From Candidatus Nomurabacteria bacterium (lineage in GTDB: Bacteria > Patescibacteriota > Minisyncoccia > Phycocordibacterales > UBA9973), in assembly GCA_031425235.1 (NCBI GenBank), contig JANPIZ010000001.1, forward strand, positions 27,731-91,730: 64,000 nucleotides of DNA, given 5' to 3'. Position 1 is the first letter of the stretch. Each line of letters begins with the position of its first letter. Below, in pieces: positions 4,858 to 63,814 of the stretch. A model generated the notes under the pieces. That model saw only the letters and a list, made by a program, of their open reading frames with translations. It did no database searches and was not told where the DNA came from. The position numbers were made by a program, and so were the translations under genes.

Positions 4858-4864
4858 GTATTTA

Positions 4865-5899: not shown

Positions 5900-6050
5900 T
5901 TAAGTTTTATTTTTAAAATTTTCTTACTTAAATTATACATTAGTTACACATTGATTTCTATACTATTTTTGAATGTTTTGCTCAGGCCAATACGGCAAAT
6001 TAATTTGTTTAAATTATACGTGTTGGTATATACTGTATACATAAAAACAC

Positions 6051-6596: not shown

Positions 6597-6630
6597 AAAA
6601 AATTCTCGTTTTAAACGAGAATTTTTTATT
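6597..6630. terminator. Bidirectional rho-independent terminator between convergent genes
   Basis: aaaaattctcgttt-taa-acgagaatttttt forms a perfect stem flanked by an A-run and a T-run. Confidence 0.7.
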
Positions 6631-9600
6631 GCGCTGGAGTTGTATCTGGTTCTGGACCTTCGCTTGGAGCTGTCTCCGGAGGTGCGGTAATTTCTGGTGG
6701 TGTATCTTCTGTTGTTGTGTCGGGTGGTGTTACATTTTCAGTTGGTGTTTCTTCGGGTGTAGAAGTTTCACCTCCACTACCTCCAGAACTTTCGTCAGGA
6801 GTTTGTGTGCTTCCTCCATCTTCATCTCCACTATTGTCGACATTGATAACTTCGAGTCCATCCCCAAGGCTCTCGAAAACTTGCACGTCTTTTACCCCAA
6901 GGGCAATCCATGAGAAGCGAATATTTTGTGGTGCTTTTTTGTTGAGTATGATCGTGAATCCAGTTTCATCTTTTTCTATCACAAGTGATGTTATATTTTG
7001 TGCAAGTAAATCATCGATTGAAGTTTCATCCATGTTGTCGGTAGTTTCAAAAGATATGGACGCAGTCACTACTGGAGTTGTCGCATACGGTTCTTCAAAT
7101 TCGACTCGTACAAATTTATCTCCTTCTTTTACGAGAGCAAACCCTGCGGTATCTTTGTTGAATATTGGCGGAAGATTAAATTCAACCTGAGAATCAAAAC
7201 TAATTTTTGCCGGTAAGTCCGGTGTGCCTTTTAGTATTGTAAGCCCCGCAAATGTCGCATCACCAGATACGTTTAATGTATCAGTGCTAACGACTTGAGC
7301 TGTTAAGCGAGGAGTGACGACTTCAAGTCCGGCCACGATACGATCAGTAAGTAATTCAGAAATACTGAATGCTCCTTCTGTATCTTCTTGGTCACTCAAT
7401 AATTTAGCGAGTATTGAAGCTGAGTCTTCTACTGAACCATTCAATGTAAGTCCGGTATAATTATTTAAACTCTCCCCATTAAAATATCCTTGTTCAACGT
7501 ACACCATCACAGTTGCTTTGTTTGAGCCAGAAGTCCAAGACTCTATCGCTTTACCGATAACAACTCCAGCTTTTGTAGCTTTTGTCGCTTTACCCGGTTC
7601 GCCAGACGTAGTAACGTAATCACCAGGGAAAATAGATGCTGAATTTGAGGCAACTTTTACAGGTACGCGTCCGTTTAGAGCAACTGGCATTGGATTGTCT
7701 ACATCTTTTATATTGTGCCCAGCAGAAGTAAAGTCTCCGTAGTTATCAGAAACAATACCGATTGTATTTGTTTGATATGCTTTTGAAGTTTTTTCTAATT
7801 TAGTTATCTGGCCTTTTACTTTATTCCAATCAATATTGCCATCAGTAACATCATATGTAGTCACCATTTCATTACCTGTCGCCACGATATCTCCAAATTC
7901 CACGCCATTTTCTACGGGGTACATTTCTGCATAGTCAGCAGCTGGAGCAGCGTTACAATCCCGTATTTCATATGCCGTACCAGCCGTAGGGCCAGTAGCA
8001 TTTGCTAGACTAGAACAAACAGCGTTTGTAGAGGCCGTTCCCGAAAGACCCATACTCACCACACCTGCGCTTGTAACTTTAAATTTCTGGACACTCGCAT
8101 TTTTGAAATCAAGGAAATCTCCCGTGAATGAAGTTGAGCCTCCACTTACTGCCATGTCTATCAAAATAGCGTCCCCAGTAAATGCAGATGTATCATGATA
8201 TACGCTTAGCATTGATGCTGCAGAAGTCATCGAACCGGTATAGAACCTCGCTACATCTCCTTGGGTTGTACCTGTATTTTCTGCATATAAACCAGCCGGA
8301 ACAGCAACACCTCCAGCCGTACCCGCTGTGATAGCTTGTACACCATATGTTCCAGCAATAGCACGAAGCCCAGTATTAGTACCTGCCGTATTACTTCCAG
8401 CGTTTGATGTGATATCAATACCACGAACAAGATTTGCGAGAGATGTGTTGTCAACTGTACGTATGGTTTCCCCTACCATTGTGTTCGAATTTGTTGTCGG
8501 CGCGTTATTGAAAACAAAACGATTACCGACTTGAACAAATCCAGCGGTTCCTCCGTTGTTAAAGGTATAATCACCATGGATACCAGCTATGGCAGTAGTA
8601 GATCCATTCGAAGCCATAGTGCTGACTATGTTTAATTTTGCAAGTGTTCCAGATGTGAGTGTAGTACCGCCTATCAATACTTGACCACCATCTACATTCA
8701 AACCAATGTTTGCAGTAGTTGCTCCTGAAGCATTTACATATAACCCAACGTTTGTTCCCGAAGTTGCGTTTGTATGAGTATTAGAAATTCGTGCTCCGTA
8801 TGTAGTAATAGCATTTGTAGCCGTTGCGCCGGTTGTCAAAATATTTAATGCTGTTTGAGAAGCTGCGGCCGCTGTACCTGAAACTTGGAGATCTACTAAT
8901 TTTCCTGTTGTTAGTGTTGAAGATGCAGCATATAATCCTGTTCCTGTAGTTAGCGAATTAGCGTTCAAAGCTAATGCAGATGTTGTGGTTGTCCCCGTAA
9001 TAACACCCGAAGTAATCTGAACTGAGCCTGTAGTGTTCGGAGTTAAGGTTATGTTATTACCAACTAAAGCCAAGTCTGCTGCAGTCGCAGTAATTGTTAG
9101 CCCGGCAGCAGCAGTAAGAGCAGTACCGAGACCAGTTATGTTATTCGAGTTCATTCCAAGAGCTAAGTTAGAGAAATTGTATTCATCAGCTCCTGCAATT
9201 TGAACATTCAAAGTTTTACCAGTAACTGTATTAATGTTCATGTCTCCAGTGTTATCACGGAAGATTGAGTTGACTGTTCCTGCTGGAGCACTCGCATCAT
9301 CTGAGGTGAAAGTTAAGGCATCATTAGTAGTGTCATCAACCTCTCCAGAGAATGAGCCGCCGCCACAGCCAGTACAAGTTCCGCTAATTACTACATCACC
9401 ATCAAACCGAGCTGTGCCTGCATCTACCCAGAGAGCATACGCGTTTGTTAAGGCTATATTTGCACCCCCGTCAGCAGGAGCCCCTGCGATATAAACATTC
9501 GCTGCATTGGTAATGGTAACGGCATTAGTGGAATCAAAAGTAGGAATACCAAATGAGTTGGCGACTCCATTAGTACGGGTGCCTGCCCCGTCGCTATCGG

Positions 9601-11389
9601 TATAAGTAGCAGCTGTTGCTTGCAATTGAATTCCGTTTAAACCCCAAGCTGCCTGAGACATGTTACCAGCTAGTTCAAGACGGGCGTCTGGAGAAGCTTG
9701 ACCAATACCTACACTACCACTAGCAAGGATTCTCATAACTTCATTAGTGCCACTTGCCTGCAAGTCTCCGCCTCCATTAAAGGAAAAGTGAGATGCAGAT
9801 GGTACATAGAACTGAGTTTGAAACGCATTTATTCCAATACCATAATTACTACCCGCACCGCCGTTATACAAACTGATTCTGTCCCCCACACTAGAACCGT
9901 TAAAAGAGAGTGGGGATCCTGGAGTTGCATTACCAATGCCGACATTACCGCCATTATCTAACACTAGCTGGTTTGAAACTCCATCTACATTCATCACTAA
10001 GTCACCATTAGAAGTCATTTGGAAATCTGTATAGACAGTTCCATCAGCTTGTGTTAAGCGCAGTTGCGGATTGGTCGCGTCCAATATGTCTAACTTGCGG
10101 TCTGGACCGGTGGTATTAATACCGACATTGGCTCCACCAGTAGATTGCAAAATTAGAGCAGTTCCATTTCCTGTTATTTCGTTTGAAAGAGATCCCCAAG
10201 GAGAGTATGCGCCCATACCAATATCTCCACCACGAACCCCGCCAGACGCTAACACATCCCCTAATACTTGTAACGCGACTAGTGGACCAGCAGTATTAAT
10301 ACCTACTCTATTATTAGTAGCATCTATAGATAGAACGTCAGTGTCGAAAGACAAACCGTTCACGCCACCACTTAACACAATGTTGGTGTCGTTTGAGAAT
10401 GTCCATGTCCCTGCATTAGAAGAAGTAAGGTTTCCGTTTGATGCTACCTGGAACAAGTCACCAGAACCCACTGTCAACAGCGCCGCAGGAGTTGCGTCGC
10501 CGATACCGACGTTACCACCATTGAAAATGGCAGCATAGTTAGCAGTCGTACCACCAGATGCTGTAACATACAAACCTACGTTAGTGGAAGTGGTGCCAGT
10601 ATGAGTGTTAGAAATTTGAGCACCATATGTTGTAATACCAGAAGTAGCGTTAATGCCTTGCAAAGAAATATTCAAACCAGTTTGAGAAGCGCCAGCCGCC
10701 GTACCGTTTGAAGAAAGATTTAGTAATGTTCCGGTAGAAAGTCCGTTTCCATTAACACTAGCCAGGATGCCACTCGTCGCACTGTTAGCCGTCAAATTTA
10801 ATAACCCAGTACCAGTATAAATTCCAGTATTAGTAAGTGCGATATCTGCACCGCTCGTGTTAGTTGTGCCGACAAAAACTTTTCCATTACCATACACACC
10901 ATTTGCTGTGATCGCGAATGCTGATGAAACAATTTGTGGGCGAGGAGAAAGGCTTTCAAAACTTTCTGCTCCATCCCCTGGTGCACACGTAGCTCCAACC
11001 TTTGTTGCAACTTGCACATCTACAAAAGCTTGGTCGTCAGTAAATGTGAGGTCAAGAGTATCGCCACCCGCTGCTACATCGCCGATACTTCCATCAAATA
11101 CTCCAAGACGCGTGACGATGGTCATCGTAGACGGAGAACCTGTTGGCCAAATTTTTGAGCCACCTGTCGTTGCATCATAAATAGAAAATTTATAACAATA
11201 ATCTGTACCCCCGGAAGTCCCGAGCAAGTTACCACTTGAATCCATAAGTCGTCCTTGGAAATTTATTATCTTTGGAACTCCAGCTGTTGCATGCAGTAAC
11301 GTGGGAGATAAAAAAGCAGAAATTATAAAAATTAAAATAAAAATAGAATAGAGAGAACGTATTTTTTTGAAAAAGGAAAAGGTTTTCAT
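6626..11389 (-). CDS. Giant secreted surface protein (1587 aa) with a signal peptide, long Gly/Thr/Asn/Ser-rich beta-strand repeats and a C-terminal Pro/Thr/Glu-rich tail
   Basis: Intact ORF in the track. The N-terminus [36 protein letters not shown] is a signal peptide. Low-complexity TGT/NGN/SGG repeats run throughout. The C-terminal 120 aa are acidic and Pro/Thr-rich ([44 protein letters not shown]). No LPXTG motif is present. Confidence 0.85.
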
Positions 11390-45019: not shown

Positions 45020-45035
45020 TTAAGATTTTTACGAG

Positions 45036-50185: not shown

Positions 50186-51118
50186 TACGTATAGGTCCAA
50201 TAGCTTGGCACCACTTGGTGGAATATCATCAAGTATATGCCATACACAACAAACAAGAATATGCCTAAGATTAGAAGAGAAGCAGCTCGACTAGTTAAAC
50301 GTGGTTGGAGTGCAAGAAAAGTGGGTCGATATCTAGGTTTTCATCATACAGCAGTAATGGAGTGGGTTAGAAGAAGTAGAATCATTGGAGATCATCCCAT
50401 ACCCACAAAATCTTCCAAACCGAAGTCACATCCGAAACAATTGAAAGAGAAAGTAGTAAACAAGATCGTAAAGAAAAGACTGGAGCACAACAGATATGCA
50501 GAAGCAGTGCATCGAGAACTTTTAAATGATGGAATCAAAGTTTCCTTGTCATCAGTAAAGAGAACTTTAGAAAGAAAGTATCTGATCAAGAAACGAAGTC
50601 CATGGAAACGATACCATCCACCAGTAGATCGCCCATATCCCCTGAAATCAGGTGATTTAGTAGAGATTGATGCCATTCATCGCATGACAGGTAAAAAGAC
50701 AAGATTGTACGTGCTTGTACTAATTGATGTCTACTCACGTTGGATATATGCCAGAGCTTACGAACGCTTGAATGCAGCTACTGCAGTTCAGTTCGTAGCT
50801 CTAGCACAAAAACATGCACCATTTAAATTCGATATGCTACAGAGTGATCATGGACCTGAATTTGGAAAATGGTTTGTGTCTAGAATTCAAAAGAAACATA
50901 GGTATACCAGAATTGGTAAACCGAACGACAATGCACACATTGAAAGAGTGAACAGAACAATTCAGGAAGAATGTTTAGATCATTTACCTAATGATGTGAA
51001 GAAGATTAATTGCGAATTGAAAAAGTATTTGCAATACTACAATTACAAACGAGTCCACGGAGGAATTAATTACTTAATTCCTATGCAGGTGGTGTGAAGC
51101 TATTGGTTAGGATACGGT
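50186..51118 (+). mobile_element. IS481-like insertion sequence (about 930 bp) with imperfect terminal inverted repeats
   Basis: The left end GTATAGGTCCAATAGCTTGGCACCAC (50189..) matches the reverse complement of the right end GTGTGAAGCTATTGGTTAGGATAC (..51115). The transposase stop lies inside the right inverted repeat. Confidence 0.65.
50237..51097 (+). CDS. DDE transposase (integrase core, rve fold), IS481/IS3-like single ORF with an N-terminal HTH
   Basis: 286 aa with D(EIDAIH)...D(SDHGPEF)...E(HIERVNRT) and the ending YNYKRVHGGI. Confidence 0.8.
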   Translation: MPYTTNKNMPKIRREAARLVKRGWSARKVGRYLGFHHTAVMEWVRRSRIIGDHPIPTKSSKPKSHPKQLKEKVVNKIVKKRLEHNRYAEAVHRELLNDGIKVSLSSVKRTLERKYLIKKRSPWKRYHPPVDRPYPLKSGDLVEIDAIHRMTGKKTRLYVLVLIDVYSRWIYARAYERLNAATAVQFVALAQKHAPFKFDMLQSDHGPEFGKWFVSRIQKKHRYTRIGKPNDNAHIERVNRTIQEECLDHLPNDVKKINCELKKYLQYYNYKRVHGGINYLIPMQVV

Positions 51119-52630: not shown

Positions 52631-54165
52631 TAGCTTGAAGTGATCACTGATATATATCCCTTATTATTTGAACTTTCAGAACCAATGTACATATAATTAC
52701 CCTCACAATCACTACTGGTGCCCTGAAGCCCGCCGCCGCTTCCCGGAGGAAGCGTAAGAGGGCTTGCGTATTCAGTAATATTACTTGGATTAGCAATATT
52801 CCATATCTGAAATTGTCCATTTGAAGTAATTAAAAATGCTAAATAATTTCTAATCGTAATACCATTTATACTGCTTGCTGAATTCATGCCTCCTATCTCA
52901 GGGAGGGCAGTGTTTGAATTCGAATTATTTAAAATATGAAAGTCATTCCCTGTGTTCGGTACAGTTTTTCCAAGATAAAGCTTGTCGCCAACTAAATACA
53001 TACTTTTACCATTACCAGCTCCACTTGATGCATTAAAACTACCTGCCGCTGTCGGGTTTGATAAATTTGAAATATTGTAAATTTTTAATTCTTGACTATT
53101 TGGAGATGCAATATACACATAATTATTCCTTACAAAAATATTATTTATTCCATTACCTATCTCAATACTTGATAACACAATAGGGTTCGTAGGTGTGCCG
53201 CTACCATTTCCTCCTACATCTATAATAAAAAACTCTTTACCGCTCGTCGCATTAGCTAGACCAAGATATACTATCCCATTTTTATAAAAAACACTTGTTC
53301 CATTTGCTAATTTGTTACCAGTTGTAAAGCTGTTAATTTTAAAGTTTTTTGCAATAAATGGATTTGCGGAGTTACTCATATTAATGACTTGTAATTGTGC
53401 ACAATTATGACTTTCAGTACACGCTTGTGGTGAACTATCATAGGCATTTGCAACATATGCATATTGTTGACCATCTACTGCAACAGCAACGAGGCCTTCA
53501 CTAATGGTTCCTGGGCTATTGTCTAATTTCCCAAGCACATCACTCGGGGTTAAAACAGGGTCTGCGATATTTACAATAAAAAAAGTTTCGTCATTATTTC
53601 CATTATTATTGTTCACCGTCACATACATTTTTTTATTAAATACCTGAATCGATCTAATAGGGAAGCCACTTGAATTATCATTTAATAAATCATTACCAAA
53701 TTCATATTCAGTTTTTTGTGGATGGGTCCAATCACCAGTAAGTACAGAGCTACACGTATCGCCACCATTCACTGCGTCTTTATTTGTCAGAAGGGTAGAG
53801 AACACAGTAGACAAAGTTCTGCCTGCTGTTTGCCAGCTCACTGTCGAAGTAACTTTTTTAGTAAAGAGATCAGTTTGGATAACGTCGAGTGCTTTTGTAT
53901 ACGTAAGCCCTGCGCTTGTTTCTGTTGTAGTCGACGAATTTACTAACCCAAAATCAAACCTCGAATCAGCGCGCGCTTTTTCTAGTATTGCCTGACCTTT
54001 TGAAATTGCTTCGTTATTTGTCTGTGTATCAATAGCTAAAGATTGATTACTGAATACAACGAGGATTACAGCACCCATCGACAAAATGAGCACCGCAAAA
54101 GCTATGAGTATTTCTAAGGTTGCAAAGCCTCGTATGTGTTTTTTACCAATTAATTGTACCTTCAT
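52630..54165 (-). CDS. Large pilin-like protein with an N-terminal prepilin motif and a beta-propeller-like C-terminal domain (PilY1-like tip adhesin candidate)
   Basis: 511 aa. RGFATLEILIAFAVLIL is at the N-terminus. Repeated YVYIA/LYLG/IWNI strands rich in N, G and S follow. Confidence 0.6.
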   Translation of the reverse strand: MKVQLIGKKHIRGFATLEILIAFAVLILSMGAVILVVFSNQSLAIDTQTNNEAISKGQAILEKARADSRFDFGLVNSSTTTETSAGLTYTKALDVIQTDLFTKKVTSTVSWQTAGRTLSTVFSTLLTNKDAVNGGDTCSSVLTGDWTHPQKTEYEFGNDLLNDNSSGFPIRSIQVFNKKMYVTVNNNNGNNDETFFIVNIADPVLTPSDVLGKLDNSPGTISEGLVAVAVDGQQYAYVANAYDSSPQACTESHNCAQLQVINMSNSANPFIAKNFKINSFTTGNKLANGTSVFYKNGIVYLGLANATSGKEFFIIDVGGNGSGTPTNPIVLSSIEIGNGINNIFVRNNYVYIASPNSQELKIYNISNLSNPTAAGSFNASSGAGNGKSMYLVGDKLYLGKTVPNTGNDFHILNNSNSNTALPEIGGMNSASSINGITIRNYLAFLITSNGQFQIWNIANPSNITEYASPLTLPPGSGGGLQGTSSDCEGNYMYIGSESSNNKGYISVITSS

Positions 54166-54562
54166 TGTTTATCATTATATCGTCTGATTTTATACCGTCG
54201 GTAATGTGTATAGTGGCCCCTGTTGTCGTTCCTGAAAGCCTATTGAAAACAATGGCAGGAAACAGGGTGCCTCCGTTAGAAGAGATGTCGGTATTAGCAG
54301 GAATGGAGTCACCAGTGGTGCACGTGTTTCCTTTGAAAATCACGTAGTTTGGAGCTATGTAACACACGCCGTGATTAGTGTCATATATATTACTCATAGC
54401 CCGACTACGAGCTTTTTGCAATATGGATACTATTTTTGCTTCTTCTGTTTGAAATGTATCCCGCCTGAAAGCACTCAAATCCGTCACGACTCCAAAACCT
54501 ATGACCACTGCCACAACGCCGATCACAACTATTATTTCAATTAAGCTAAAACCTTTATTCAT
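54143..54562 (-). CDS. Pseudopilin (GspH/FimT-like)
   Basis: 139 aa with MNKGFSLIEIIVVIGVVAVV. Confidence 0.8.
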   Translation of the reverse strand: MNKGFSLIEIIVVIGVVAVVIGFGVVTDLSAFRRDTFQTEEAKIVSILQKARSRAMSNIYDTNHGVCYIAPNYVIFKGNTCTTGDSIPANTDISSNGGTLFPAIVFNRLSGTTTGATIHITDGIKSDDIMINNEGTINW

Positions 54563-54566
54563 AATT

Positions 54567-55688
54567 TTACTTTGGTGTTAGGTTTTGAGTAATACCATAG
54601 ATAGGAGTAATAATAGCGATAGCGATAAATCCGACGAGAATACCCATTATAATCATCAATATTGGTTCAACCATGCTCGAAAGGTTCTTCGTAAAATCAT
54701 CGATCTCCGCTTCATACATTTCAGAAAGATACATAAGCGAGTTGGATAAATTTCCGCTATGTTCACCGACCGACACTATCTGCGATACAATATCTGGGAA
54801 AAATTCGCGATTCTTGCTCAAGTGAGTAGATATTTTTGCACCGCGATTTACTACAGCGGCCAAGGCATGGTATTCCTTTTGATATACAAGGTTAGGCGTT
54901 GTACGTACACATATCGGTAACGCTTCACCCATAGTTACACCACTTTTGAGAAGTAATCCGAGTGTGCGAGTAAAGTTTGCGATATTATAGTCAATAGTAA
55001 TTTTCCCAATGATTGGTATTTTTAAAATAAAACGATCAAAATAAAATGCACATGTTTTACTTTTCTTTAAAGTAATTAAAAAAGCAACTAGTAAAACTAC
55101 TAAGCCTGCAAACGCGACAAGTCCCCAATTGGTAACAAATCCACTCATAGCGATAACAATTCGAGTAGAAAGTGGAAGATCATAATTCAAACTTGAGAAT
55201 ACGGGTAATATTTTTGGAAAAAGGAATACCATCAAGAATGCCACGATGCCCACAGTAGCGATGCTGACAATGATAGGGTACACCGAAGCACTGATTATTT
55301 TTTTACGAAGAGCTTGTTTTTTCTTTAACTCGTCAGCGATATATTCTAGATTTTCGGAAAGAATACCTGTTTGTTCCCCAAAACCGATTATATTGATAGT
55401 AAATTCACCAAATGTATTTTTAAATTTACTTAAACTTGTTGATAGGTTTTGACCGTTCGAAACATTCGTAATGACAGTATCTAAAATACGAATATATGTT
55501 TTCTTGCGTGTTTGCTCGCGAATCATTACGAGCGATTCACGCATCGGTATACCTGCTTTAATAAGAAAGGAAAGTCTTTTGACGAAAAAAGTTTGGTCTT
55601 TAACTGACAGACGCATCCGAGTGGACGAGATGGTTTGCAGCGATTCCATCAATGACTTTTTATTTTTTTCTTTTGTGTGTTCGGCCAT
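54567..55688 (-). CDS. pilC: Type IV pilus assembly platform protein PilC (GspF family)
   Basis: 373 aa with two T2SS-F repeats and three TM segments. Confidence 0.85.
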   Translation of the reverse strand: MAEHTKEKNKKSLMESLQTISSTRMRLSVKDQTFFVKRLSFLIKAGIPMRESLVMIREQTRKKTYIRILDTVITNVSNGQNLSTSLSKFKNTFGEFTINIIGFGEQTGILSENLEYIADELKKKQALRKKIISASVYPIIVSIATVGIVAFLMVFLFPKILPVFSSLNYDLPLSTRIVIAMSGFVTNWGLVAFAGLVVLLVAFLITLKKSKTCAFYFDRFILKIPIIGKITIDYNIANFTRTLGLLLKSGVTMGEALPICVRTTPNLVYQKEYHALAAVVNRGAKISTHLSKNREFFPDIVSQIVSVGEHSGNLSNSLMYLSEMYEAEIDDFTKNLSSMVEPILMIIMGILVGFIAIAIITPIYGITQNLTPK

Positions 55689-55693
55689 GGGTA

Positions 55694-56953
55694 TTATTCA
55701 TGGATAACTCGTAGTACCTCTTCGACAGTGGTAAGTCCCTCTTTTACTTTATTAAATCCATCTTCGAACATTGTAGTCATTCCATTTTTAATAGCTATTT
55801 TTTTGATTTCTGCTGCAGATGCCCGACGGAGTATCGCGTCTTTGATTTCTGTATCAGCTACTAAGACTTCATTTATACACACACGCCCTCGATACCCACT
55901 GTTATTGCATTTTTCGCAACCATTACCTTTATATACAAATTCATTATTCACAAGCAAATTCGCGTATGGAGTTTTCGCAAGAGCTTCTTTCATGGCATGA
56001 GTAATGACTATTTTCTCTTTACAGTCAGCACAAATTTTTCGCACAAGTCGCTGTCCGATAGCTATAGACACAGTCGAAGCCACAAGATATTCTTCAATCC
56101 CCATGTCGAGCAAGCGAGGCAAGGTAGTGGCCGCATCGTTGGTATGAAGTGTAGAAAGGAGTAGGTGACCAGTAAGTGCAGTATTCACGGCGATGCTTGC
56201 TGTCTCAGCGTCGCGGATTTCACCAACCATGATAATATTTGGATCTTGTCTCAAAATACTACGTAAGCCATTTGCAAATGTAAGACCATGCCGGGCATTT
56301 ACTTGTATTTGCTCAATGTCATCTACCGCGTATTCAATCGGGTCTTCAATGGTCAGAATAGAAACCTCGGGCGAATTTAACATTTTAATAAGAGTGTACA
56401 TAGTTGTGGTTTTACCACTACCTGTTGGGCCAGTTGAGAGGATCATTCCATTTGTTTTTCGCATGGCATCTTCTATTTTCTTTCTGTCAGTTTCACTAAA
56501 GCCAAGGTCGCCGAGTGTCGACTTTTCGTTTTTATCCGAAAGCAAACGAAGCACCGCATTTTCACCATGGTAGGTCGGCACTATTGATACACGAAAATCG
56601 ATAAATTTAGACTGGGAAGGATTTTGTTGTAATGCCTCTTCGGAAAATGCATATCTAAAGCGGCCATCCTGAGTAGCCTGATGTTCATCGGTGCGAAGTT
56701 TGGATAATATTTTTATTCGAGCGATAACTTCGTTATTTATTTCTTTAGGAAATGTGTACGCATCAGTAAGCACTCCATCAATACGAAAACGAACTCGGAC
56801 ACCTTTTACAAGTGGATCAATGTGAATATCAGAAGCACGACTTTGAAATGCTTTTTCAATTAAATTATCAAAGAGGGCGATAATAGATATCTCAGCACCA
56901 CGAGCGAGTTCTTCTTCAACTTTGTCTATTTTTTTGTTCGGAGGTGTGTCCAC
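55694..56953 (-). CDS. pilB: Type IV pilus / T2SS ATPase of the GspE-PilB family
   Basis: 419 aa. The Walker A motif is STGPTGSGKTTT, with Asp and His boxes and a C-terminal tetracysteine (CADCKE...CEKC). Confidence 0.85.
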   Translation of the reverse strand: MDTPPNKKIDKVEEELARGAEISIIALFDNLIEKAFQSRASDIHIDPLVKGVRVRFRIDGVLTDAYTFPKEINNEVIARIKILSKLRTDEHQATQDGRFRYAFSEEALQQNPSQSKFIDFRVSIVPTYHGENAVLRLLSDKNEKSTLGDLGFSETDRKKIEDAMRKTNGMILSTGPTGSGKTTTMYTLIKMLNSPEVSILTIEDPIEYAVDDIEQIQVNARHGLTFANGLRSILRQDPNIIMVGEIRDAETASIAVNTALTGHLLLSTLHTNDAATTLPRLLDMGIEEYLVASTVSIAIGQRLVRKICADCKEKIVITHAMKEALAKTPYANLLVNNEFVYKGNGCEKCNNSGYRGRVCINEVLVADTEIKDAILRRASAAEIKKIAIKNGMTTMFEDGFNKVKEGLTTVEEVLRVIHE

Positions 56954-57031
56954 GAGAGTATAGATATTTTTAATGTCTCAGAAATTACTTACAAAAACTA
57001 TACTACAAAAAATTCTTTTTGACAACATGAA

Positions 57032-57060
57032 TTGACAAAAAGGTCAAATTAACGTAAAGT
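57032..57060 (+). promoter_or_regulatory. Candidate promoter TTGACA-17-TAAAGT with an embedded TTGAC-aaaaag-GTCAA inverted repeat
   Basis: Read directly from the sequence. It lies about 60 nt upstream of the start at 57120. A hairpin (ATACGGCT-AAG-AGCCGTAT then TTTTT) follows in the leader. Confidence 0.35.
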
Positions 57061-57119
57061 CTTTTACGGATACGGCTAAGAGCCGTATTTTTCAATTAAG
57101 AAATTTGGGAGATAGAAAA

Positions 57120-58025
57120 ATGAAAAATAGTAAATTAATGAGCGCAATGGCGTTCATTTTCGTTCTTTTAACAATGACAGCTTTGTCGGCAACAACGGCA
57201 GCGGCACAGACCACAGTTGTCGTAACTGGCAACACTTCAACGGCGGAAAACGTTCCGGGTTGGTATTTTAGCCGAGACACGGCGAATGCCACTCCATACA
57301 CGTTCACAAATCGGTTCAACAGCATCGGCAACGGGAGTCTTTTTACCGGCGTTATCAGTACGGCGGCGGCAAAGAAATTCATCGGCGAGCATTTCATCAA
57401 CGTAGCGATATCGACGGTTAACAGTATTTCCGGCGATTTCAAGATCGCAGGGAACGGAACAGCAGCCTCTGCTAACCAGTTCTATTTAAACGTATATGCA
57501 AACTTCGGCGAATCGGACGACCTCAAATTCTACGACTGTAGATACGACGTTATTGCAACGACAGGAAGTACGTCCGGATTCTCCACGCTCACGTTTGATC
57601 CGACGCTACCTTATTCGGTCACTACAAGAGGCGGGGCTTCTGCATCGCCATACCCGTGTCCTTCCATACCGGCAGATATGAACTCGCTTAGTGCTGGTTC
57701 GAACATTCGAGCTTACAGCCTAAACACGGGCGATACGAGTTTGAATGACGCCGGTTTAGCTGGCTACTGGGATAATGTGGTGACGGATCTCGACTCCGGC
57801 GTGACGATTTACGATTTCGAAATGTCGGCATCCAAATGCAAAAACGGGGGATGGTCAACAATGACTGGGTCCGACGGCAACCCGTATATTAACCAGGGTG
57901 ACTGCGTTTCCGACACAGTTCGGGATCGCTCATTCTCAGTTTTGTTTATACAAACTATTCGTTTGGCGAACAATAACCGCCAAGCTAATTTAAACAACAA
58001 AATAAATCGAGAACTAATTTATTAG
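57120..58025 (+). CDS. Secreted protein of a paralogous family sharing a C-terminal CKNGGW...NQGxCVS motif; anomalously GC-rich gene
   Basis: A GGGAGA ribosome-binding site lies 8 nt upstream. The signal peptide is MKNSKLMSAMAFIFVLLTMTALSA. A 60-nt sample is 53% GC against about 38-40% in neighbouring genes, and the gene uses many CGG/GCG/ACG codons. The C-terminus reads CKNGGWSTMTGSDGNPYINQGDCVS. Confidence 0.7.
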   Translation: MKNSKLMSAMAFIFVLLTMTALSATTAAAQTTVVVTGNTSTAENVPGWYFSRDTANATPYTFTNRFNSIGNGSLFTGVISTAAAKKFIGEHFINVAISTVNSISGDFKIAGNGTAASANQFYLNVYANFGESDDLKFYDCRYDVIATTGSTSGFSTLTFDPTLPYSVTTRGGASASPYPCPSIPADMNSLSAGSNIRAYSLNTGDTSLNDAGLAGYWDNVVTDLDSGVTIYDFEMSASKCKNGGWSTMTGSDGNPYINQGDCVSDTVRDRSFSVLFIQTIRLANNNRQANLNNKINRELIY

Positions 58026-58039
58026 AACTCACATTCCAT

Positions 58040-58078
58040 GCGGAATTTTCGAAAAGAAAATTCCGCATCGCTTTTTTT
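58040..58078 (+). terminator. Rho-independent terminator
   Basis: GCGGAATTTTC-GAAAA-GAAAATTCCGC followed by ATCGCTTTTTTT. Confidence 0.7.
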
Positions 58079-58197
58079 ACTCGAATTTTCATACATTAAA
58101 AATGTAACTAACATAGTGAAAGAAAACTCACTTATGTTCGTCTTATATTAATAGATGAACTTTAAAGTTTTTTTATTAATTTAATTATAAAAAATAT

Positions 58198-58452
58198 ATG
58201 GAAATAATACTTTGGATTGTGTTTGGTGCGCTCGTAGGGTGGGTAGCTTCTCTCATCATGAAAACTGATGCGGAGCAAGGTGCTTTTCTTAACATAATAG
58301 TCGGGGTAGTCGGCGCTGTAATCGGTGGCTGGATTATGAGCAGTTTAGGTGGAGGTGCGGTAACTGGTTTTAATATAACTAGTTTTGTCGTAGCCCTTGT
58401 TGGTGCCATCATCCTAATATTTCTTGTTAAGGTACTACGTCGCACTACATAA
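58198..58452 (+). CDS. GlsB/YeaQ/YmgE-family (transglycosylase-associated) small membrane protein
   Basis: 84 aa. ILWIVFGALVGWVASLIM...IVGVVGAVIGGWI is present. Confidence 0.8.
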   Translation: MEIILWIVFGALVGWVASLIMKTDAEQGAFLNIIVGVVGAVIGGWIMSSLGGGAVTGFNITSFVVALVGAIILIFLVKVLRRTT

Positions 58453-58475
58453 AAATTTATTAGGGATTAGAACAT

Positions 58476-58510
58476 CAAAAAAACTTCGCAGTACTGCGAA
58501 GTTTTTTTGT
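58476..58510. terminator. Bidirectional terminator
   Basis: AAAAAAACTTCGCAGTACTGCGAAGTTTTTTTG. Confidence 0.7.
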
Positions 58511-58664
58511 TTGACAAAATTTTTCATCAATTTCCTAAAAATATTCATGCAATATTCCGTGGCCTCATGCGTCTACTATATTACAGGTCCATTTGAGTCG
58601 ATCATTGGATTTGTAACAAAATTATTATTAATAAAAACATTATTACATTAACCTAAACAAAATT

Positions 58665-59852
58665 ATGAAAAAAATATTCTCAATAGGAAGCAGTGTCACC
58701 GCTATTGCATTACTTCTCGTATTATCATTTGGTATGATAGCGGAAGCCGCAACTCCAACAGTAAACGTAACTGGTAACTATGTTGTAAATATGGAATATC
58801 TAGGCAGTAACTATGCTCATGATATGTCATTGACCCAAGATGGTTCTGGAAATGTAACTGGTAACGGAGGTTCTCCCTCTGGAGCAAATACATATGCCTG
58901 GAGTGTTACTTCGGGTACAGTTTCAGGAAATGCAATTGACTTCTTAGCAAATTATACAGCTACCCCAGATGCAGTAACTCCACAAACAGTTCTTCACGTT
59001 ATGGGGACTGTCGCAGCTAACGGTACAATAAGTGGAACATGGTCAGATAACTATCAAGGAGGTTCACGATCAGGTGCTTTCACTTCAACCAGTGGGACAG
59101 CAGCCCTTCTCGGATCCCTTAATGCTGAAGATTTCGGGGTTGTAAATTACGACACTGGACTAGGAATGCTAAAGGGTTACACGGCAGGATTTGGTGTTGC
59201 TAACAACACACTTGCTGGCGCCACAAATGTTCAAGTAAAATTATACGGAGCAGGGGATCAACTATTGCAAACTAATACAGCAATCCTTCCAAAGTTTAAT
59301 GCTGATATAACTGGCTCTCAGTTCTCATCACCATTTGATGTATCTGGAAACTTCGCATACGCAACTGATGGATACTGGACAAATGTCCGTGCAGCCCAAT
59401 ACGGTCAAAGTATCCCTGCTACAAAAGTAGTAGCGACGGTGACTCTCGCAAACGGTAAAATTGTAACTGCAACCAATGCAAACTTGAGTGGCGATCCAAC
59501 AACTATTTACCCAGCAGCAACTCACATGATAGTTGCTTCAGCAGGTGCTAATGGTTCAATTTCTCCATCAGGTTCAGTCCTCGTAAATAATGCTACAAGC
59601 AAAACATTTACTATCACTGCTAATAGCGGTTACCAAGTAAACGATGTTCTCGTTGACGGATCTTCGGTAGGTGCGGTTAACACATATACATTTAATAATG
59701 TGACAGCAAACCACACTATTGCAGCTTCATTCAAAGCAGAAACTACAAACCAACCAACAAATAAAGATGCATGTAAAAATGGTGGCTGGAAGACCTTCAC
59801 AAACCCAACATTTAAAAACCAGGGTCAATGTGTAAGTTCTACAAATCGATAA
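58665..59852 (+). CDS. Secreted protein and paralog of 57120..58025, with an InlB B-repeat-like domain and the C-terminal CKNGGW...NQGQCVS motif
   Basis: 395 aa with a signal peptide. The N-terminus ATPTVNVTGNY resembles QTTVVVTGNT in the paralog. The C-terminus reads DACKNGGWKTFTNPTFKNQGQCVSSTNR. Confidence 0.7.
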   Translation: MKKIFSIGSSVTAIALLLVLSFGMIAEAATPTVNVTGNYVVNMEYLGSNYAHDMSLTQDGSGNVTGNGGSPSGANTYAWSVTSGTVSGNAIDFLANYTATPDAVTPQTVLHVMGTVAANGTISGTWSDNYQGGSRSGAFTSTSGTAALLGSLNAEDFGVVNYDTGLGMLKGYTAGFGVANNTLAGATNVQVKLYGAGDQLLQTNTAILPKFNADITGSQFSSPFDVSGNFAYATDGYWTNVRAAQYGQSIPATKVVATVTLANGKIVTATNANLSGDPTTIYPAATHMIVASAGANGSISPSGSVLVNNATSKTFTITANSGYQVNDVLVDGSSVGAVNTYTFNNVTANHTIAASFKAETTNQPTNKDACKNGGWKTFTNPTFKNQGQCVSSTNR

Positions 59853-59885
59853 TAACAAAGTAGATCAATAGAATAAGCGAAAGTA

Positions 59886-59916
59886 AAAGAACCACCCATA
59901 CGGGTGGTTCTTTTAC
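59886..59916 (+). terminator. Rho-independent terminator
   Basis: GAACCACCC-ATAC-GGGTGGTTC followed by TTTT. Confidence 0.7.
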
Positions 59917-60056
59917 TTATATTATTTTTAAATTTAAGTATTTTTAGTTTTATAGAGGAGATATACTCATTTTCTGTAATATAAACACCTCTTTAGCGTC
60001 ATAGTAACTAGAGATCAACTGATGACTAGAATGTCTACATGATATCCATTCCTAGT

Positions 60057-60085
60057 TTGACAAAGTTCTGTAAATCTGTTAGATT
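60057..60085 (+). promoter_or_regulatory. Candidate sigma70-like promoter TTGACA-17-TAGATT
   Basis: A perfect -35 box. It lies about 80 nt upstream of the ATG at 60166. Confidence 0.35.
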
Positions 60086-60165
60086 GCGATTATATAGAAA
60101 AAAGTTGCAAGGTGTAAATTTATTATCAAAAGTCGTTATTTATAAGTTTAATTTTAAAAATAAGT

Positions 60166-62538
60166 ATGAAAAAAATATTGTCGTTTCTAATTATGTTTTC
60201 GATGGTTTTCTCAATGGTCGGATCTTTACCTCTTGCTGCAAGCGCACAACAAGCAGAAAATAATGCAGTTGCCGTAGAAGATATAATAAATATCTGTCAC
60301 AAAACTGGATCGAATTGGAAATTCAAAACTGTTAACGAATCATCATCCCTCAGTGCTCATCTAGGACACGGAGATTTTGCATACGAGGGTTCCTTAGAAG
60401 CAGAATTTGATAAAGATGCTTGGTGTGAATCAAATATTCCTGAGACAACACCAACAGATGTTTGCCCTAATGTAGATGGTGTGCAGACACAAAATCCATG
60501 TGCAGACACTACCTGTGAAGAAGAAGGCGGAACATGGGATTCTGAAACACAAGAATGTGATAATCCAACATCTCAAATTGAAAATTCATGTCCAGCACCA
60601 GATTCACTGACTGACGAAACAGTAGAAGTAATCAATGCAGGTTCAGAGGAAACCTTACAAAGTATTTTGAACGATGAGGGGTATGGAGTAAATGTAAATA
60701 CAAACCAGAAGCAATACCAACTTTGGAATATCCCTGCAAACTCAGAAATAAATTTTGATGCAAAATTTATCGAAGGTATATCCGGTAGCCAGATGACATT
60801 TGGTTACTACACAGATAGTAGTATGGCAAATTTCGTTCCTGTGTTTAAAACTGGAGCAAGCGCTCCTGAGGCAGTCCCCGTTGTTTCTTCAGGAAGTCCA
60901 GCTATTTCAGTAAATGTGGGTGCAGCTACCAGTGTAGGTTTCGCTATAAAAGTATATCATTCAACTGGACCACTCCTCGGTATCATTGCTACTGAAAACG
61001 CACTTTATAGTCCTGCAGAAAATGGCCCAACAGACAAAGCAATAGTATACAGCCCAGCATCAGATCAATACGTAATAGCATTTGAAGACTGGGAATTTGG
61101 GGGCTTTGATTACAATGACGTCGTAGTTGAAATAACTCTAGAATGCGAAGAAGTTCAGGGAGAGACTACATCTTCTAATATAACTTATGTAGACCCAGTT
61201 AGTATGAACGGATGGACATATTTTCCAGAAAATAATAATGGTGGACAAACTGGTCAAATGGTTGTAGGTCCAACTGGGCAACCAGCAGGAACAGGAAGTG
61301 CAGAATTTAAGCTTACTGCAAATGATCAAGGTCAAGTTTTGGGTATGACCAATATAAGAGGCACTCGTTTTAGTCAAATTAATTCTCTTACATACAGTAC
61401 ATACACTCCGACAGCAGGAGTGGCACTACCTGCACTTCAGTTTGAATTTGATAATAATCGCAGTGATGCGGATAATTCTTACAAAGGACGTTTAGTGTAT
61501 GAGCCATATTACACTCACACAGTATCTACTAACACCTGGCAAACATGGAATCCTATGGATAATAGTGAGTCAGGTGGCAATGGTAACTGGTGGTTTAGTG
61601 ATGGAACTATAGCCACAGCTTCAGGCTGCTCTATTACAACACCATGTACATGGGCAGAAATTACAGCATTATATCCAAATGCCGGTATCCGCGATGATGG
61701 TACTCCTCTTTCAGGTTTAACTCTATTTAAAGCAGGAAGTGGATCTACATTTACTGCGAATGTAGATAAATTTATTACTGTTATCAAAACTGGCAATAAC
61801 ACTCACACAGAAACTTACGATTTTGAACCAAGTACTACTGACACCCCAACTCCATCTGCTTGTTCTGATGGAATAGACAACAGCGATGCAGAAGACTCAT
61901 TAGCAGATGCTCTTGATCCAGGTTGTCACTCTGATGGAAACGTAAACAACACTAATTCATACGTATCATCTGACAATGATGAATCAAATTCATCTACTCA
62001 ATGTTCAGACGGACTAGATAACGATACCGATGGAAATATAGACTCACAAGATGTTGGTTGCCAGTCTGGAGAGGGTAATTCATGGAATCCAGATGATGAT
62101 AATGAAATCAATGAAGGTAATAACAATAGCAGTGGAAGCAGTAGTAGTGGTAGTAGTCGTCGAACAGGAAGTTCAGTAGCAGGTCAAGTACTCGGTGCTG
62201 AAACTTCATGTGGTATCTACCTCGACAAATACCTCAAGATGGGATTGAAGAATGATGTTGAAGCTGTAAAGAAAGTTCAAAAATTCTTGAACGATTTCTT
62301 CAAAGCAGGACTTGTAGTAGATGGAGTTTTCGGACCCCTTACTGATAAGCATGTTCGTGCATTCCAACTTTCTCATAAAACTAAAATCTTAGATCCGTGG
62401 GGATTAAAGGGTCCTACAGGTATCGTATATCTCACAACACAAACTGAGATAAACAATATCATATGTCCACCTCTTGACCTACCAATACCACCTCTTACAC
62501 CTTTTGAAACGAATCCAGCGGTTCCTCCAAAAGCGTAA
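60166..62538 (+). CDS. Large secreted protein with a DUF4114-like domain, Cys/Asp-rich CxDGxDNDxDG repeats and a C-terminal peptidoglycan-binding domain
   Basis: 790 aa with a signal peptide. ...VIAFEDWEFGGFDYNDVVVEI is DUF4114-like. CSDGIDNSDAEDSLADALDPGC and CSDGLDNDTDGNIDSQDVGC are present. The C-terminus ...KVQKFLNDFFKAGLVVDGVFGPLTDKHVRAFQ is PG_binding_1-like. Confidence 0.7.
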   Translation: MKKILSFLIMFSMVFSMVGSLPLAASAQQAENNAVAVEDIINICHKTGSNWKFKTVNESSSLSAHLGHGDFAYEGSLEAEFDKDAWCESNIPETTPTDVCPNVDGVQTQNPCADTTCEEEGGTWDSETQECDNPTSQIENSCPAPDSLTDETVEVINAGSEETLQSILNDEGYGVNVNTNQKQYQLWNIPANSEINFDAKFIEGISGSQMTFGYYTDSSMANFVPVFKTGASAPEAVPVVSSGSPAISVNVGAATSVGFAIKVYHSTGPLLGIIATENALYSPAENGPTDKAIVYSPASDQYVIAFEDWEFGGFDYNDVVVEITLECEEVQGETTSSNITYVDPVSMNGWTYFPENNNGGQTGQMVVGPTGQPAGTGSAEFKLTANDQGQVLGMTNIRGTRFSQINSLTYSTYTPTAGVALPALQFEFDNNRSDADNSYKGRLVYEPYYTHTVSTNTWQTWNPMDNSESGGNGNWWFSDGTIATASGCSITTPCTWAEITALYPNAGIRDDGTPLSGLTLFKAGSGSTFTANVDKFITVIKTGNNTHTETYDFEPSTTDTPTPSACSDGIDNSDAEDSLADALDPGCHSDGNVNNTNSYVSSDNDESNSSTQCSDGLDNDTDGNIDSQDVGCQSGEGNSWNPDDDNEINEGNNNSSGSSSSGSSRRTGSSVAGQVLGAETSCGIYLDKYLKMGLKNDVEAVKKVQKFLNDFFKAGLVVDGVFGPLTDKHVRAFQLSHKTKILDPWGLKGPTGIVYLTTQTEINNIICPPLDLPIPPLTPFETNPAVPPKA

Positions 62539-62565
62539 CTTAAGCTTTGATAGGGAATAGGGAAA

Positions 62566-62598
62566 CAGCCCCGACGTACGTCGGGGCTGTTTTTGTTT
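62566..62598 (+). terminator. Rho-independent terminator (perfect 23-bp palindrome followed by TTTTTGTTT)
   Basis: CAGCCCCGACGTACGTCGGGGCTG. Confidence 0.75.
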
Positions 62599-62695
62599 AA
62601 TTTTCTAGCATGATATAATTTGTCAGATAGATAATAAATTGATAAAAGGGTACGTACAATTGACATTTAGCCTTAAATATTATATAATATACAAA

Positions 62696-63814
62696 ATGCA
62701 AAAACTCGCCACATGGTTTAAAAAATATTTTATCCCGCACGAGCACAATGAGTTTAAACCTCATTTATTAAGGCACGAATCAGCGCTGATGCTACTCCTA
62801 TTAGTCCTCCTCGTGGAGCTTGTTTTCCTCGCCCAAGTATTTATCGTGTTTGATAAAACCAATTTCCTCGCCTCTGTATTACCAGGTGTATTGACCACGC
62901 TTACAAACAAAGAACGCGCTCAAAATAATGTCGAGCCTTTAGTACAAAATGACCTCCTTACTAAAGCAGCACAACTCAAAGCCAACGACATGGCTCAAAA
63001 TGAATATTTTGCTCACACAAGCCCTGAAGGTAAAACACCCTGGCACTGGCTGAATCAAGTCGGCTACAAATACAGCCTGGCAGGAGAAAACCTAGCAATA
63101 AACTTCTTTGAATCACGTGAGGTTGCGGAAGCATGGATGAATTCACCCACACATCGTGCCAATATCGTGAAGCAACATTATAAAGAAATAGGTATTGCCG
63201 TTGCAAGTGGAAGATACCAAGGTTCCGATACTGTGTTTGTAGCACAATTTTTTGGAACACCAACAGTGGTAGCGCCTCTCCCTGAAACCCCAGCTCAGAC
63301 GGAAGTACAGACACCAACACCTATCACTACCACAAAACCAAAACCCACACCTCCTGTTACTCCAAAACCAACTGTAGTTCCCACGAAAAAATCAATAACC
63401 GCCGATGGCGGGACCCCGCAGAAAGCAGTGGTACCAGAACCGACCCCGGCTCCGACAACAACGATCGCAGTTGTACCCACCACAACGCAAGTCCTAGGTG
63501 AAGAGACAAACGCAACCACAGAAAGCATTTTCACTCAGATTATTTCTGACCTAAAATCATTTACGGATAGAGTGCTAACTTCTCCAGACAAATTTGTTGC
63601 TTACACATATGGGGCGATTGCATTCGTAGTTATTCTTGCGCTCATGCTCGCTATGTTTATCAAGTCCGAAATGGGTCATCGACCAAATGTTGTCAGGGGG
63701 CTTTCGATAGTAAGCGTCATAGTAATACTTATAATTGTAAATATGAGAATATTCCACGTAGAAACAAAAGTGCCTTCGGAAAGTCTCGAAGCGAGCGTGA
63801 TTGCGTCACAATAG
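62696..63814 (+). CDS. CAP/SCP (PR-1-like, YkwD-type) domain protein with an N-terminal TM helix, a Pro/Thr-rich linker and a C-terminal TM helix
   Basis: LTNKERAQNNVEPLVQNDLLTKAAQLKANDMAQNEYFAHTSPEGKTPWHWL...GENLAINF...AWMNSPTHRANI is present. The internal start MQKLATWF is preceded by a TATAAT box. Confidence 0.7.
   Translation: MQKLATWFKKYFIPHEHNEFKPHLLRHESALMLLLLVLLVELVFLAQVFIVFDKTNFLASVLPGVLTTLTNKERAQNNVEPLVQNDLLTKAAQLKANDMAQNEYFAHTSPEGKTPWHWLNQVGYKYSLAGENLAINFFESREVAEAWMNSPTHRANIVKQHYKEIGIAVASGRYQGSDTVFVAQFFGTPTVVAPLPETPAQTEVQTPTPITTTKPKPTPPVTPKPTVVPTKKSITADGGTPQKAVVPEPTPAPTTTIAVVPTTTQVLGEETNATTESIFTQIISDLKSFTDRVLTSPDKFVAYTYGAIAFVVILALMLAMFIKSEMGHRPNVVRGLSIVSVIVILIIVNMRIFHVETKVPSESLEASVIASQ

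Follow-up and report, generated by a model that had tools for sequence, protein, structure and literature searches.

A compositionally foreign gene for a secreted β-sandwich protein and a widespread double-cysteine module beside type IV pilus-like genes of a Candidatus Nomurabacteria bacterium

Atypical GC content at third codon positions (GC3) together with atypical codon usage is the classical, Lawrence-Ochman type signature of a small islet or single-gene transfer. The Listeria GW modules and the LysM, SLH and CWB2 modules, for their part, are non-covalent surface retention modules of monoderm bacteria. Here we compare both with two neighbouring genes for secreted proteins, gene 1 and gene 2, in 64,000 nt of the Candidatus Nomurabacteria contig JANPIZ010000001.1 (positions 27,731 to 91,730; this whole stretch, of overall GC 0.379, is referred to as the window, and coordinates are those of the window). 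Both genes lie beside a type IV pilus-like operon and carry towards their 3′ end a short sequence with two conserved cysteines, the double-Cys module. Gene 1 resembles known single-gene transfers and islets in its sharp composition break, its atypical synonymous codons, its relatives in differently composed genomes and its absence from related loci; unlike them, its foreign segment has no tRNA, integrase or flanking repeats, is smaller than a gene, is fused in frame at both ends and ends in a read-through tail. The double-Cys module resembles the GW, LysM, SLH and CWB2 modules in being terminal, repeatable and attached by linkers to diverse secreted passengers, and with its conserved Gly-Trp and Lys-rich sequence it occurs mainly in lineages with atypical or monoderm envelopes; it differs from them in its length of about 33 residues, its single cysteine pair and the lack of detectable homology. 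We hold it to be fairly likely (probability about 0.7) that gene 1 was imported, that gene 2 is an unrelated resident, and that the module common to both was shuffled between proteins and acts outside the cell as a tag.

An earlier note made from the letters of the window alone, the sequence-only reading, had described two open reading frames (ORFs) on the plus strand and had called the first one unusually rich in GC. Both ORFs are present, at 57105 (TTG) or 57120 (ATG)..58025 and at 58665..59852, and the GC anomaly of gene 1 was recovered by a sliding GC profile and by codon analysis, which place it at synonymous sites. Over its full length gene 1 has a GC content of 0.473 vs 0.379 for the window average and forms the highest 900-nt stretch of the window. 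The 58 ORFs of 100 aa or more in the window have a mean GC3 of 0.30 (standard deviation 0.058), the next highest value after gene 1 being 0.386, and a leave-one-out log-likelihood of synonymous codon usage placed gene 1 at z = −4.8 relative to 46 confident window genes. The codons ACG, TCG, GCG, CCG and CGG are enriched 2.5- to 9-fold in gene 1 (its foreign core is given in Table 1), with ACG at 57.5 per 1000 codons in the gene vs 6.3 elsewhere and TCG at 30.7 vs 5.7, and the CpG observed/expected ratio is 1.52 vs 0.92. The flanks of the core within the same ORF have a GC content of 0.29. Gene 2 (GC 0.417, GC3 0.263) is host-like in composition, as is, according to the GC profile, the gene for a small GlsB-like membrane protein that sits between genes 1 and 2.

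The foreign segment begins and ends inside the ORF. In 30-nt windows, GC climbs from 0.23-0.40 to 0.60-0.63 at about 57180 and drops from 0.53 to 0.27 just past 57929. The gene for the database homologue P0002 shares 70.4% DNA identity with gene 1 over 741 nt, and the similarity stops at 57929 (GATCGC), past which the P0002 gene continues AAC TAA and the window continues TCA TTC... The native stop was thus lost at the 3′ junction, so that translation reads 31 codons into host DNA. The resulting 31-residue tail (SFSVLF...RELIY) is absent from the other listed module-bearing members of the family, which usually end 7-16 residues past the second cysteine. At the 5′ end there are three possible starts (TTG 57105, ATG 57120 and ATG 57138), the last of which gives the 295-aa database protein P0001, and the ATG of the nearest homologue aligns with 57147. 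The codons for MKNSKLMSA, a GGGAG ribosome-binding site about 8 nt 5′ of ATG 57120 and an upstream promoter-like site all have a host-like composition; roughly the first 9 signal-peptide codons are low in GC and have no equivalent in the nearest homologue. Since promoter-like sites were no more numerous than in a shuffled-sequence comparison, the site upstream of gene 1 is only consistent with expression. A piece of about 750-780 bp (about 57147/57180..57929) would thus have been imported and fused in frame at both ends; host-like DNA would have supplied its promoter, ribosome-binding site and first signal-peptide codons, and translation, running on past the lost stop, would end ahead of a host terminator. 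Gene 1 is a foreign, intact and apparently expressible gene for a secreted β-sandwich protein.

A phylogeny of the gene 1 family, which the sequence-only reading had proposed, groups the gene with a clade on contigs of higher GC. In a neighbour-joining tree gene 1 pairs with P0002 (bootstrap 0.85) and is then joined by P0003 (0.98) and P0043 (1.0). All four share a derived short linker (YDFE-M/R-S/A...) and a variant of the module with a loop of 21-23 residues containing GSDGNPY. The genes for P0002 and P0043 each lie between genes for an M23 peptidase and a ZIP transporter, on contigs with a GC content of 0.435-0.47 and a GC3 of 0.35-0.60; on the P0002 contig, the M23, family and ZIP genes all have a GC3 of 0.52-0.60. 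This phylogeny, with the conserved M23 and ZIP neighbours, indicates that the gene is native there and out of context in the window. The donor would be a lineage of roughly 44-52% GC in which the gene stands between the M23 peptidase and the ZIP transporter. The same arrangement is conserved in four donor-type loci (L001, L082, L083 and L084), and in L082 a CAP-domain gene and a PilM/T2SSE pilus cluster follow a few kb downstream, a set of genes like that of the window in another order.

Across 80 metagenomic loci anchored on PilB, at 36-85% identity, no homologue of gene 1 was found. Several of them carry related secreted-protein and CAP genes upstream of PilB, and in one (L137, PilB 82% identical) PilB is followed in the same place by a 1241-aa secreted peptidoglycan-binding protein and then by CAP. 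The stretch from the pilus operon to the CAP gene is a slot whose secreted-protein genes vary. Close relatives of gene 2 (L086, L088, L090 and L091), also checked for an empty site, have differing upstream contexts or lie on contigs that are too short, so that the PilB-anchored loci told more. Compared with the 80 loci, the host-like flanks of the foreign segment gave short chance matches for 56954..57146 and none for 57930..58200, and the segment may have entered by illegitimate or short-homology recombination. A phage vector was considered and set aside: the gene 1 family was not found among the 2.9 million viral contigs of IMG/VR, and the module was found on one viral contig only.

Composition, boundaries and phylogeny were all observed directly, and horizontal acquisition of gene 1, which the sequence-only reading had proposed, agrees with its GC3, its codon usage, its place in the donor clade and its absence from the 80 loci. 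Acquisition without a mobile-element signature is the best explanation. Such a transfer is in itself ordinary biology; what distinguishes this one is that it is a clean case in a genome of the candidate phyla radiation type, with a foreign segment smaller than a gene, an in-frame fusion, a lost stop and a slot beside type IV pilus genes.

The double-Cys motif that had been reported in both genes was confirmed at 57837..57905 (CKNGGW-x12-NQGDC) and 59772..59831 (CKNGGW-x9-NQGQC), the only two occurrences in a six-frame translation of the window. The two genes had also been described as paralogues with similar N-termini, and neither description survived comparison. BLASTP aligned only 30 residues around the motif (E 6e-7), and hhalign, given a 68-sequence alignment of the gene 1 family and a 38-sequence alignment of the gene 2 family, matched no more than the module and its surroundings, 43 columns in all (Prob 99.2, E 5.5e-20), a resemblance well beyond chance; the two proteins thus have in common a module of about 33 residues, and their bodies are unrelated. 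The N-terminal strings QTTVVVTGNT and ATPTVNVTGNY do occur, but their likeness is not above chance (the consensus of the gene 2 family is PTWDxTGxYV), and nothing outside the module aligns between the two families in profile-profile comparison or full-length BLASTP. Gene conversion between the two copies of the module is not indicated, since they differ in length class (21 vs 18 residues between the cysteines) and in DNA, the gene 1 copy being donor-like. Gene 2 would rather be an unrelated resident that ends in the same module because this is a mobile domain shuffled among extracellular proteins. A 405-aa protein, P0055, joins an N-terminal barrel of the gene 2 type to a β-sandwich and module of the gene 1 type, a fusion that directly shows parts of both families being shuffled.

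Other explanations of the compositional anomaly were weighed against import. High GC might be intrinsic to the gene 1 family, through amino-acid composition or codon selection for expression: Thr, Ala, Gly, Ser and Asn abound in the gene 1 protein, and other Gly/Ala/Thr-rich genes of the window reach 44-47% GC (43-47% for the control genes at 1..4905 and 6626..11389). However, the anomaly is synonymous, GC3 being 0.56 in gene 1 and a normal 0.28-0.29 in the control genes, so amino-acid composition alone is insufficient to account for it. At 36 family loci from species-representative genomes, GC3 of the gene minus that of its flanks was −0.03 ± 0.064 (maximum +0.126), as against about +0.26 here, and members in low-GC hosts have a GC3 of 0.14-0.28 that follows their flanks. 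GC3 thus tracks the host, and the bias is no property of the family; with composition also changing abruptly inside the ORF at both ends, an intrinsic origin is hardly credible. The source is evidently a metagenome-assembled genome (MAG), which leaves room for an artefact of assembly or binning in which higher-GC reads entered a chimeric contig. For this, foreign sequence would have had to be joined in frame twice within 800 bp, between stretches of low-GC host sequence that run on at either end. The 295-aa product, including the tail that spans the junction, is recorded from both NCBI and Logan, and a Logan contig (L085) matches the adjacent window sequence at 58480..62852 with 100% identity. 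The two in-frame junctions required and the presence of the protein in two sources make this very improbable. Full-length paralogy, with genes 1 and 2 arising by local duplication and one of them being overwritten by gene conversion from a higher-GC relative, would account for two adjacent genes for secreted proteins on the same strand with the same terminal motif. It too is very unlikely, given that sequence and profile comparisons align the module alone, that its two copies are unlike in length class and DNA, that the predicted folds differ (a sandwich like that of carbohydrate-binding modules (CBMs) vs an avidin-like barrel with two further β-domains), and that each gene has a large family and an architecture of its own.

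The module, which the sequence-only reading had suggested might be an uncharacterised sorting or anchoring domain, had no match in Pfam, NCBIfam, PDB or the literature. Scans with Pfam and NCBIfam at E<=1 gave no family for genes 1 and 2, and none covered the module in the multi-copy proteins P0241-P0251 and in 11 proteins from other phyla. Its profile against PDB chains reached at best E 0.45-0.81, at chance level and with matches lacking the cysteines, and a literature search for the motif strings returned nothing relevant. Built from 40 diverse copies and 36 positions long, the profile was searched against representatives of 50%-identity clusters and found 7,065 of them at E<=1e-3, spread over about eight phyla, and 1,144 at E<=1e-10. 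Within its 33 or so residues C, G-W, N-Q-G and C are invariant, and nearly so are the Lys that follows the first Cys and, two positions before NQG, an aromatic residue. Copies in P0001-P0390 fall into three length classes that differ in steps of three, with 15, 18 or 21 residues separating the cysteines; all three occur within the gene 1 family, and the gene 2 family belongs almost entirely to class 18. We regard the module as an undescribed family among small extracellular accessory domains.

Both the modularity of this element and its distribution were observed directly. Its hosts include Patescibacteria, Chloroflexota, Dormibacterota, Actinomycetota, Acidobacteriota, Gemmatimonadota and Binatia MAGs, and its passengers include DUF642, β-helix/NosD, thrombospondin type 3 repeats (TSP3), He_PIG immunoglobulin (Ig)-like domains, pentapeptide repeats and a glycine-rich ALK/LTK-type domain. 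Of 148 representatives, 96 carry it no more than 20 residues from the C-terminus, and in 12 it is followed by more than 80 residues. Two or three copies occur in 30 of 150 representatives by regular expression, and up to four by profile search, joined by acidic or Thr/Pro linkers. Some copies are internal or N-terminal (P0275, L063), and His/Asp-rich tails or whole domains can follow. A third homologue search, with the module profile, returned only short fragments and mini-proteins and contributed little besides P0436, a 67-aa protein consisting of a lipoprotein signal peptide (LLAAC lipobox) and a single module, which suggests that the module can work alone when lipid-tethered. On viral contigs the module is essentially absent, with one IMG/VR contig carrying it. 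On this contig (L172), from a high-GC phage or prophage, a 194-aa secreted protein is encoded at 5533..6117 between terminase-like and capsid/protease-like genes.

In AlphaFold2 (AF2) models of both window proteins the module is predicted with a local confidence score (pLDDT) of 82-89. The model places one short helical turn around KDxC and another around GGW, together with a small hairpin and a helix that begins at NQGxCVS. It is probably an autonomous, disulfide-stapled extracellular mini-domain, which fits the data better than a cleaved sorting signal. The module would fold alone as a small helix-turn-hairpin-helix knob closed by one disulfide, Lys-rich and with exposed aromatic residues, a surface that would suit binding to an anionic envelope polymer or a glycan. 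Its extracellular role would be that of a tag for retention or for ligand binding and docking, one that might, for instance, hold its passenger to an envelope polymer or a partner.

That the module is instead a C-terminal sorting signal, removed or covalently attached by a dedicated machine like the LPXTG, PEP-CTERM, MYXO-CTERM or type IX secretion system C-terminal domain (T9SS CTD) signals, is suggested by its mostly C-terminal position (at most 20 residues from the end in the 96 of 148 representatives mentioned above), by the Pro/Thr/Lys-rich linker that precedes it and by the many unrelated secreted passengers that bear it, as such signals do. Unlike the LPXTG, PEP-CTERM and MYXO-CTERM signals, however, the module has neither hydrophobic helix nor basic tail after it, its second Cys being followed by polar residues (VSSTNR, VSYVNTGK or the His/Asp-rich tails). 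Its tandem, internal and N-terminal copies set it apart from sortase and exosortase signals, and long acidic or His-rich tails or entire domains can come after it; lacking a transmembrane segment and having tandem and non-terminal copies, the module is less likely to be a cleaved sorting signal of the classical kind. In 80 loci no conserved partner gene, sortase-like or other, recurs next to it, although such enzymes need not be linked. In Bacteroidota, the T9SS CTD forms the very C-terminus as a β-sandwich of about 70-100 residues; the module has about 33 residues, forms short helices and a hairpin, and is hosted by Patescibacteria, Chloroflexota, Actinomycetota and others. We therefore consider a sorting signal unlikely. 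Somewhat less so, yet still doubtful, is a structural cap or oligomerisation knob for β-rich extracellular domains with no binding role. Nearly all the conserved positions (C, GGW, F, NQG, C) look structural and the module directly follows β-sandwich domains that end in YDFE, but flexible linkers part it from its passengers, tandem arrays are strung on long acidic or Thr/Pro linkers and one copy stands alone on a lipoprotein, all of which suggests an independent unit.

More specifically, the module could be a widespread, hitherto unrecognised surface-targeting or docking domain that tethers lectin-like and ligand-binding passengers to the envelope or, in episymbiotic Patescibacteria, to a host cell, a possibility that we put forward tentatively. 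If this is true, genes that carry the module, gene 1 among them, would pass from lineage to lineage as ready-made surface adhesins, and the lineages concerned would belong to little-known phyla of soil and groundwater (Patescibacteria, Chloroflexota, Dormibacterota, Acidobacteriota and Actinomycetota). Of the two results, the module is the more useful: an unnamed mini-domain found in thousands of protein clusters of several phyla that have been little studied, its definition would improve the annotation of many 'hypothetical' secreted proteins and, attached as it is to lectin-like, β-helix, Ig-like and avidin-like domains, it offers a handle on how these organisms decorate their surface.

The gene 1 family consists of secreted proteins of about 270 aa. 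A search gave 370 matches, 120 of them listed, at 52-71% identity; among the matches listed none is named, and a few carry the unrelated Pfam match TSP_3. Two cysteines of the β-sandwich, in the motifs FYDCRY and CP, are invariant in the family alignment. In a Foldseek comparison with PDB the best matches of the gene 1 body were CBM4-2, a mannanase CBM, CBM22, CBM16, CBM27, CBM28 and CBM35. Like the galactose-binding-domain-like CBMs of families 4, 16, 22, 27, 28 and 35, the secreted gene 1 protein is predicted to have a jelly-roll β-sandwich body, the AF2 model showing this fold with modest TM-scores, and the C-terminal module of gene 1 is also borne by DUF642-type relatives; unlike those CBMs, the gene 1 protein belongs to no Pfam CBM family in a Pfam scan. 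By analogy with these folds, the gene 1 body may bind carbohydrate. Its one other detectable relative in the window is the central domain of the 790-aa protein encoded downstream of gene 2, which belongs to a further family, family B, whose members also end in YDFE(P): hhalign matched family B with the stretch 61180..61830 (Prob 99.1, E 5.5e-19) and, with the module trimmed, the gene 1 family with family B (Prob 98.2, E 3e-14). The only such relative thus adjoins gene 2. A motif scan of the 790-aa protein found no double-Cys module. Members of the gene 1 family at 52-53% identity also occur on contigs of MAGs labelled Woesearchaeota (an archaeon) and Gammaproteobacteria (L021, L007 and L016), which are either mis-binned Patescibacteria contigs or signs of very wide transfer.

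Several observations weigh against the account given here. No integrase, tRNA or direct or inverted repeat was found bounding the foreign segment, where there are only short AT-rich chance repeats; the only tRNAs of the window are at 45035 and 46507 and the nearest transposase is at 50237..51097. The closest relatives at hand for an empty-site comparison are 82-85% identical in PilB and so are not strains of the same species. The nearest sampled homologue of gene 1 is 70% identical in DNA, so that the true donor is unsampled and 'recent', as the acquisition had been called, cannot be dated. The CBM-like fold match is weak (TM-score 0.23-0.34 normalised by query and 0.2-0.54 by target), and the module has neither an experimental or structural precedent nor a recurrent partner gene beside it in the 80 loci.

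The family of gene 2 gave more than 1,130 matches, the few that have a source name being Patescibacteria. Members are built on a conserved two-domain core, followed by an optional cassette (InlB-B-repeat-like or He_PIG), a linker and the module, and the domain order of gene 2 itself starts with a signal peptide. In the AF2 model (pLDDT 85.5), compared by Foldseek, the first domain is a predicted 8-stranded barrel of about 115 residues that matches rhizavidin, streptavidin, shwanavidin and agroavidin with probability 1.0 and a target-normalised TM-score of 0.55-0.68. It is like the avidin/streptavidin family in this fold and unlike it in sequence (15-19% identity), with no match to Pfam Avidin and no PDB chain matching in sequence at E<=1. 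If the barrel did scavenge a ligand, this would be of interest in an auxotrophic Patescibacterium. Residues 288-359 form a β-domain in the AF2 model; PF18998 (divergent InlB B-repeat, Flg_new_2) has precomputed matches in several close homologues and none at E<=1 in the window protein. In many members of the family (P0201, P0203, P0206 and P0207 among them) the module is followed by a tail of 40-65 residues rich in His, Asp, Lys and Gly (VEHLxHG...DDDD...HGRD), which may be metal-binding; gene 2 of the window has no His/Asp-rich tail.

Table 1. Features of the locus, in coordinates of the window
Feature	Position	Strand	Remarks
Pseudopilins	54143..54562 and beyond	-	Pfam N_methyl; pilus-like operon
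PilC-type protein	54567..55688	-	Pfam T2SSF; member of the pilus-like operon
PilB-type ATPase	55694..56953	-	Pfam T2SSE; first gene of the divergent type IV pilus-like operon
Promoter-like site TTGACA-17-TAAAGT	57032..57060	+	Low-GC intergenic sequence upstream of gene 1; 10/12 consensus match
Gene 1, coding sequence	57120..58025	+	301 aa from ATG 57120; secreted β-sandwich protein with C-terminal double-Cys module
Signal peptide of gene 1, MKNSKLMSAMAFIFVLLTMTALSATTAAA	57120..57206	+	Called from sequence pattern, no predictor
Compositionally foreign core	57147..57929	+	GC 0.506, GC3 0.559
β-sandwich domain of gene 1	57207..57821	+	Ends in YDFE; AF2 pLDDT 87
Double-Cys module, copy 1, CKNGGWSTMTGSDGNPYINQGDCVSDTVRDR	57837..57929	+	21 residues between cysteines, variant typical of the donor clade
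Read-through tail	57930..58025	+	31 codons and stop; GC 0.29; AF2 pLDDT 58-73
Intrinsic-terminator-like hairpin	58038..58078	+	13-bp perfect stem and T run, 3′ of gene 1
GlsB-like small membrane protein	58198..58452	+	84 aa; Transglycosylase-associated, PF04226, E 1.8e-14
Gene 2, coding sequence	58665..59852	+	395 aa; modular secreted protein
Avidin-like barrel	58749..59105	+	Gene 2 residues 29-147
Second β-domain	59106..59525	+	Gene 2
Ig-like/InlB-B-repeat-like cassette	59526..59741	+	Gene 2; followed by linker, then module
Double-Cys module, copy 2, CKNGGWKTFTNPTFKNQGQCVSSTNR	59772..59849	+	18 residues between cysteines, commonest class
790-aa secreted protein	60166..62538		Downstream of gene 2; carries a PG_binding_1 domain
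Central domain of the 790-aa protein	61180..61830	+	Ends TYDFEP; distant homologue of the gene 1 β-sandwich
CAP-domain protein	62639..63814		Downstream of the gene for the 790-aa protein

One end of the Logan contig L085 lies 185 nt upstream of gene 2. Strain polymorphism was considered as the cause and dropped: the end falls inside a perfect palindromic terminator of 30-34 nt (58476..58509) located 3′ of the GlsB-like gene, and is therefore read as a break of the k-mer assembler, not as strain variation. Beyond the pilus operon, about 6 kb from gene 1, lies a gene for an insertion sequence (IS)-type transposase with an rve/rve_3 integrase core and a helix-turn-helix domain (50237..51097, plus strand); it is host-like in composition, and nothing was found to connect it with the foreign segment. 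The 790-aa protein contains acidic double-disulfide repeats near the detection threshold (NF033662, 39 bits vs a cut-off of 41). The two genes that served as composition controls, both on the minus strand, code for very large secreted repeat proteins: the one at 1..4905, cut off by the start of the window, exceeds 1635 aa, and the one at 6626..11389 has 1587 aa.

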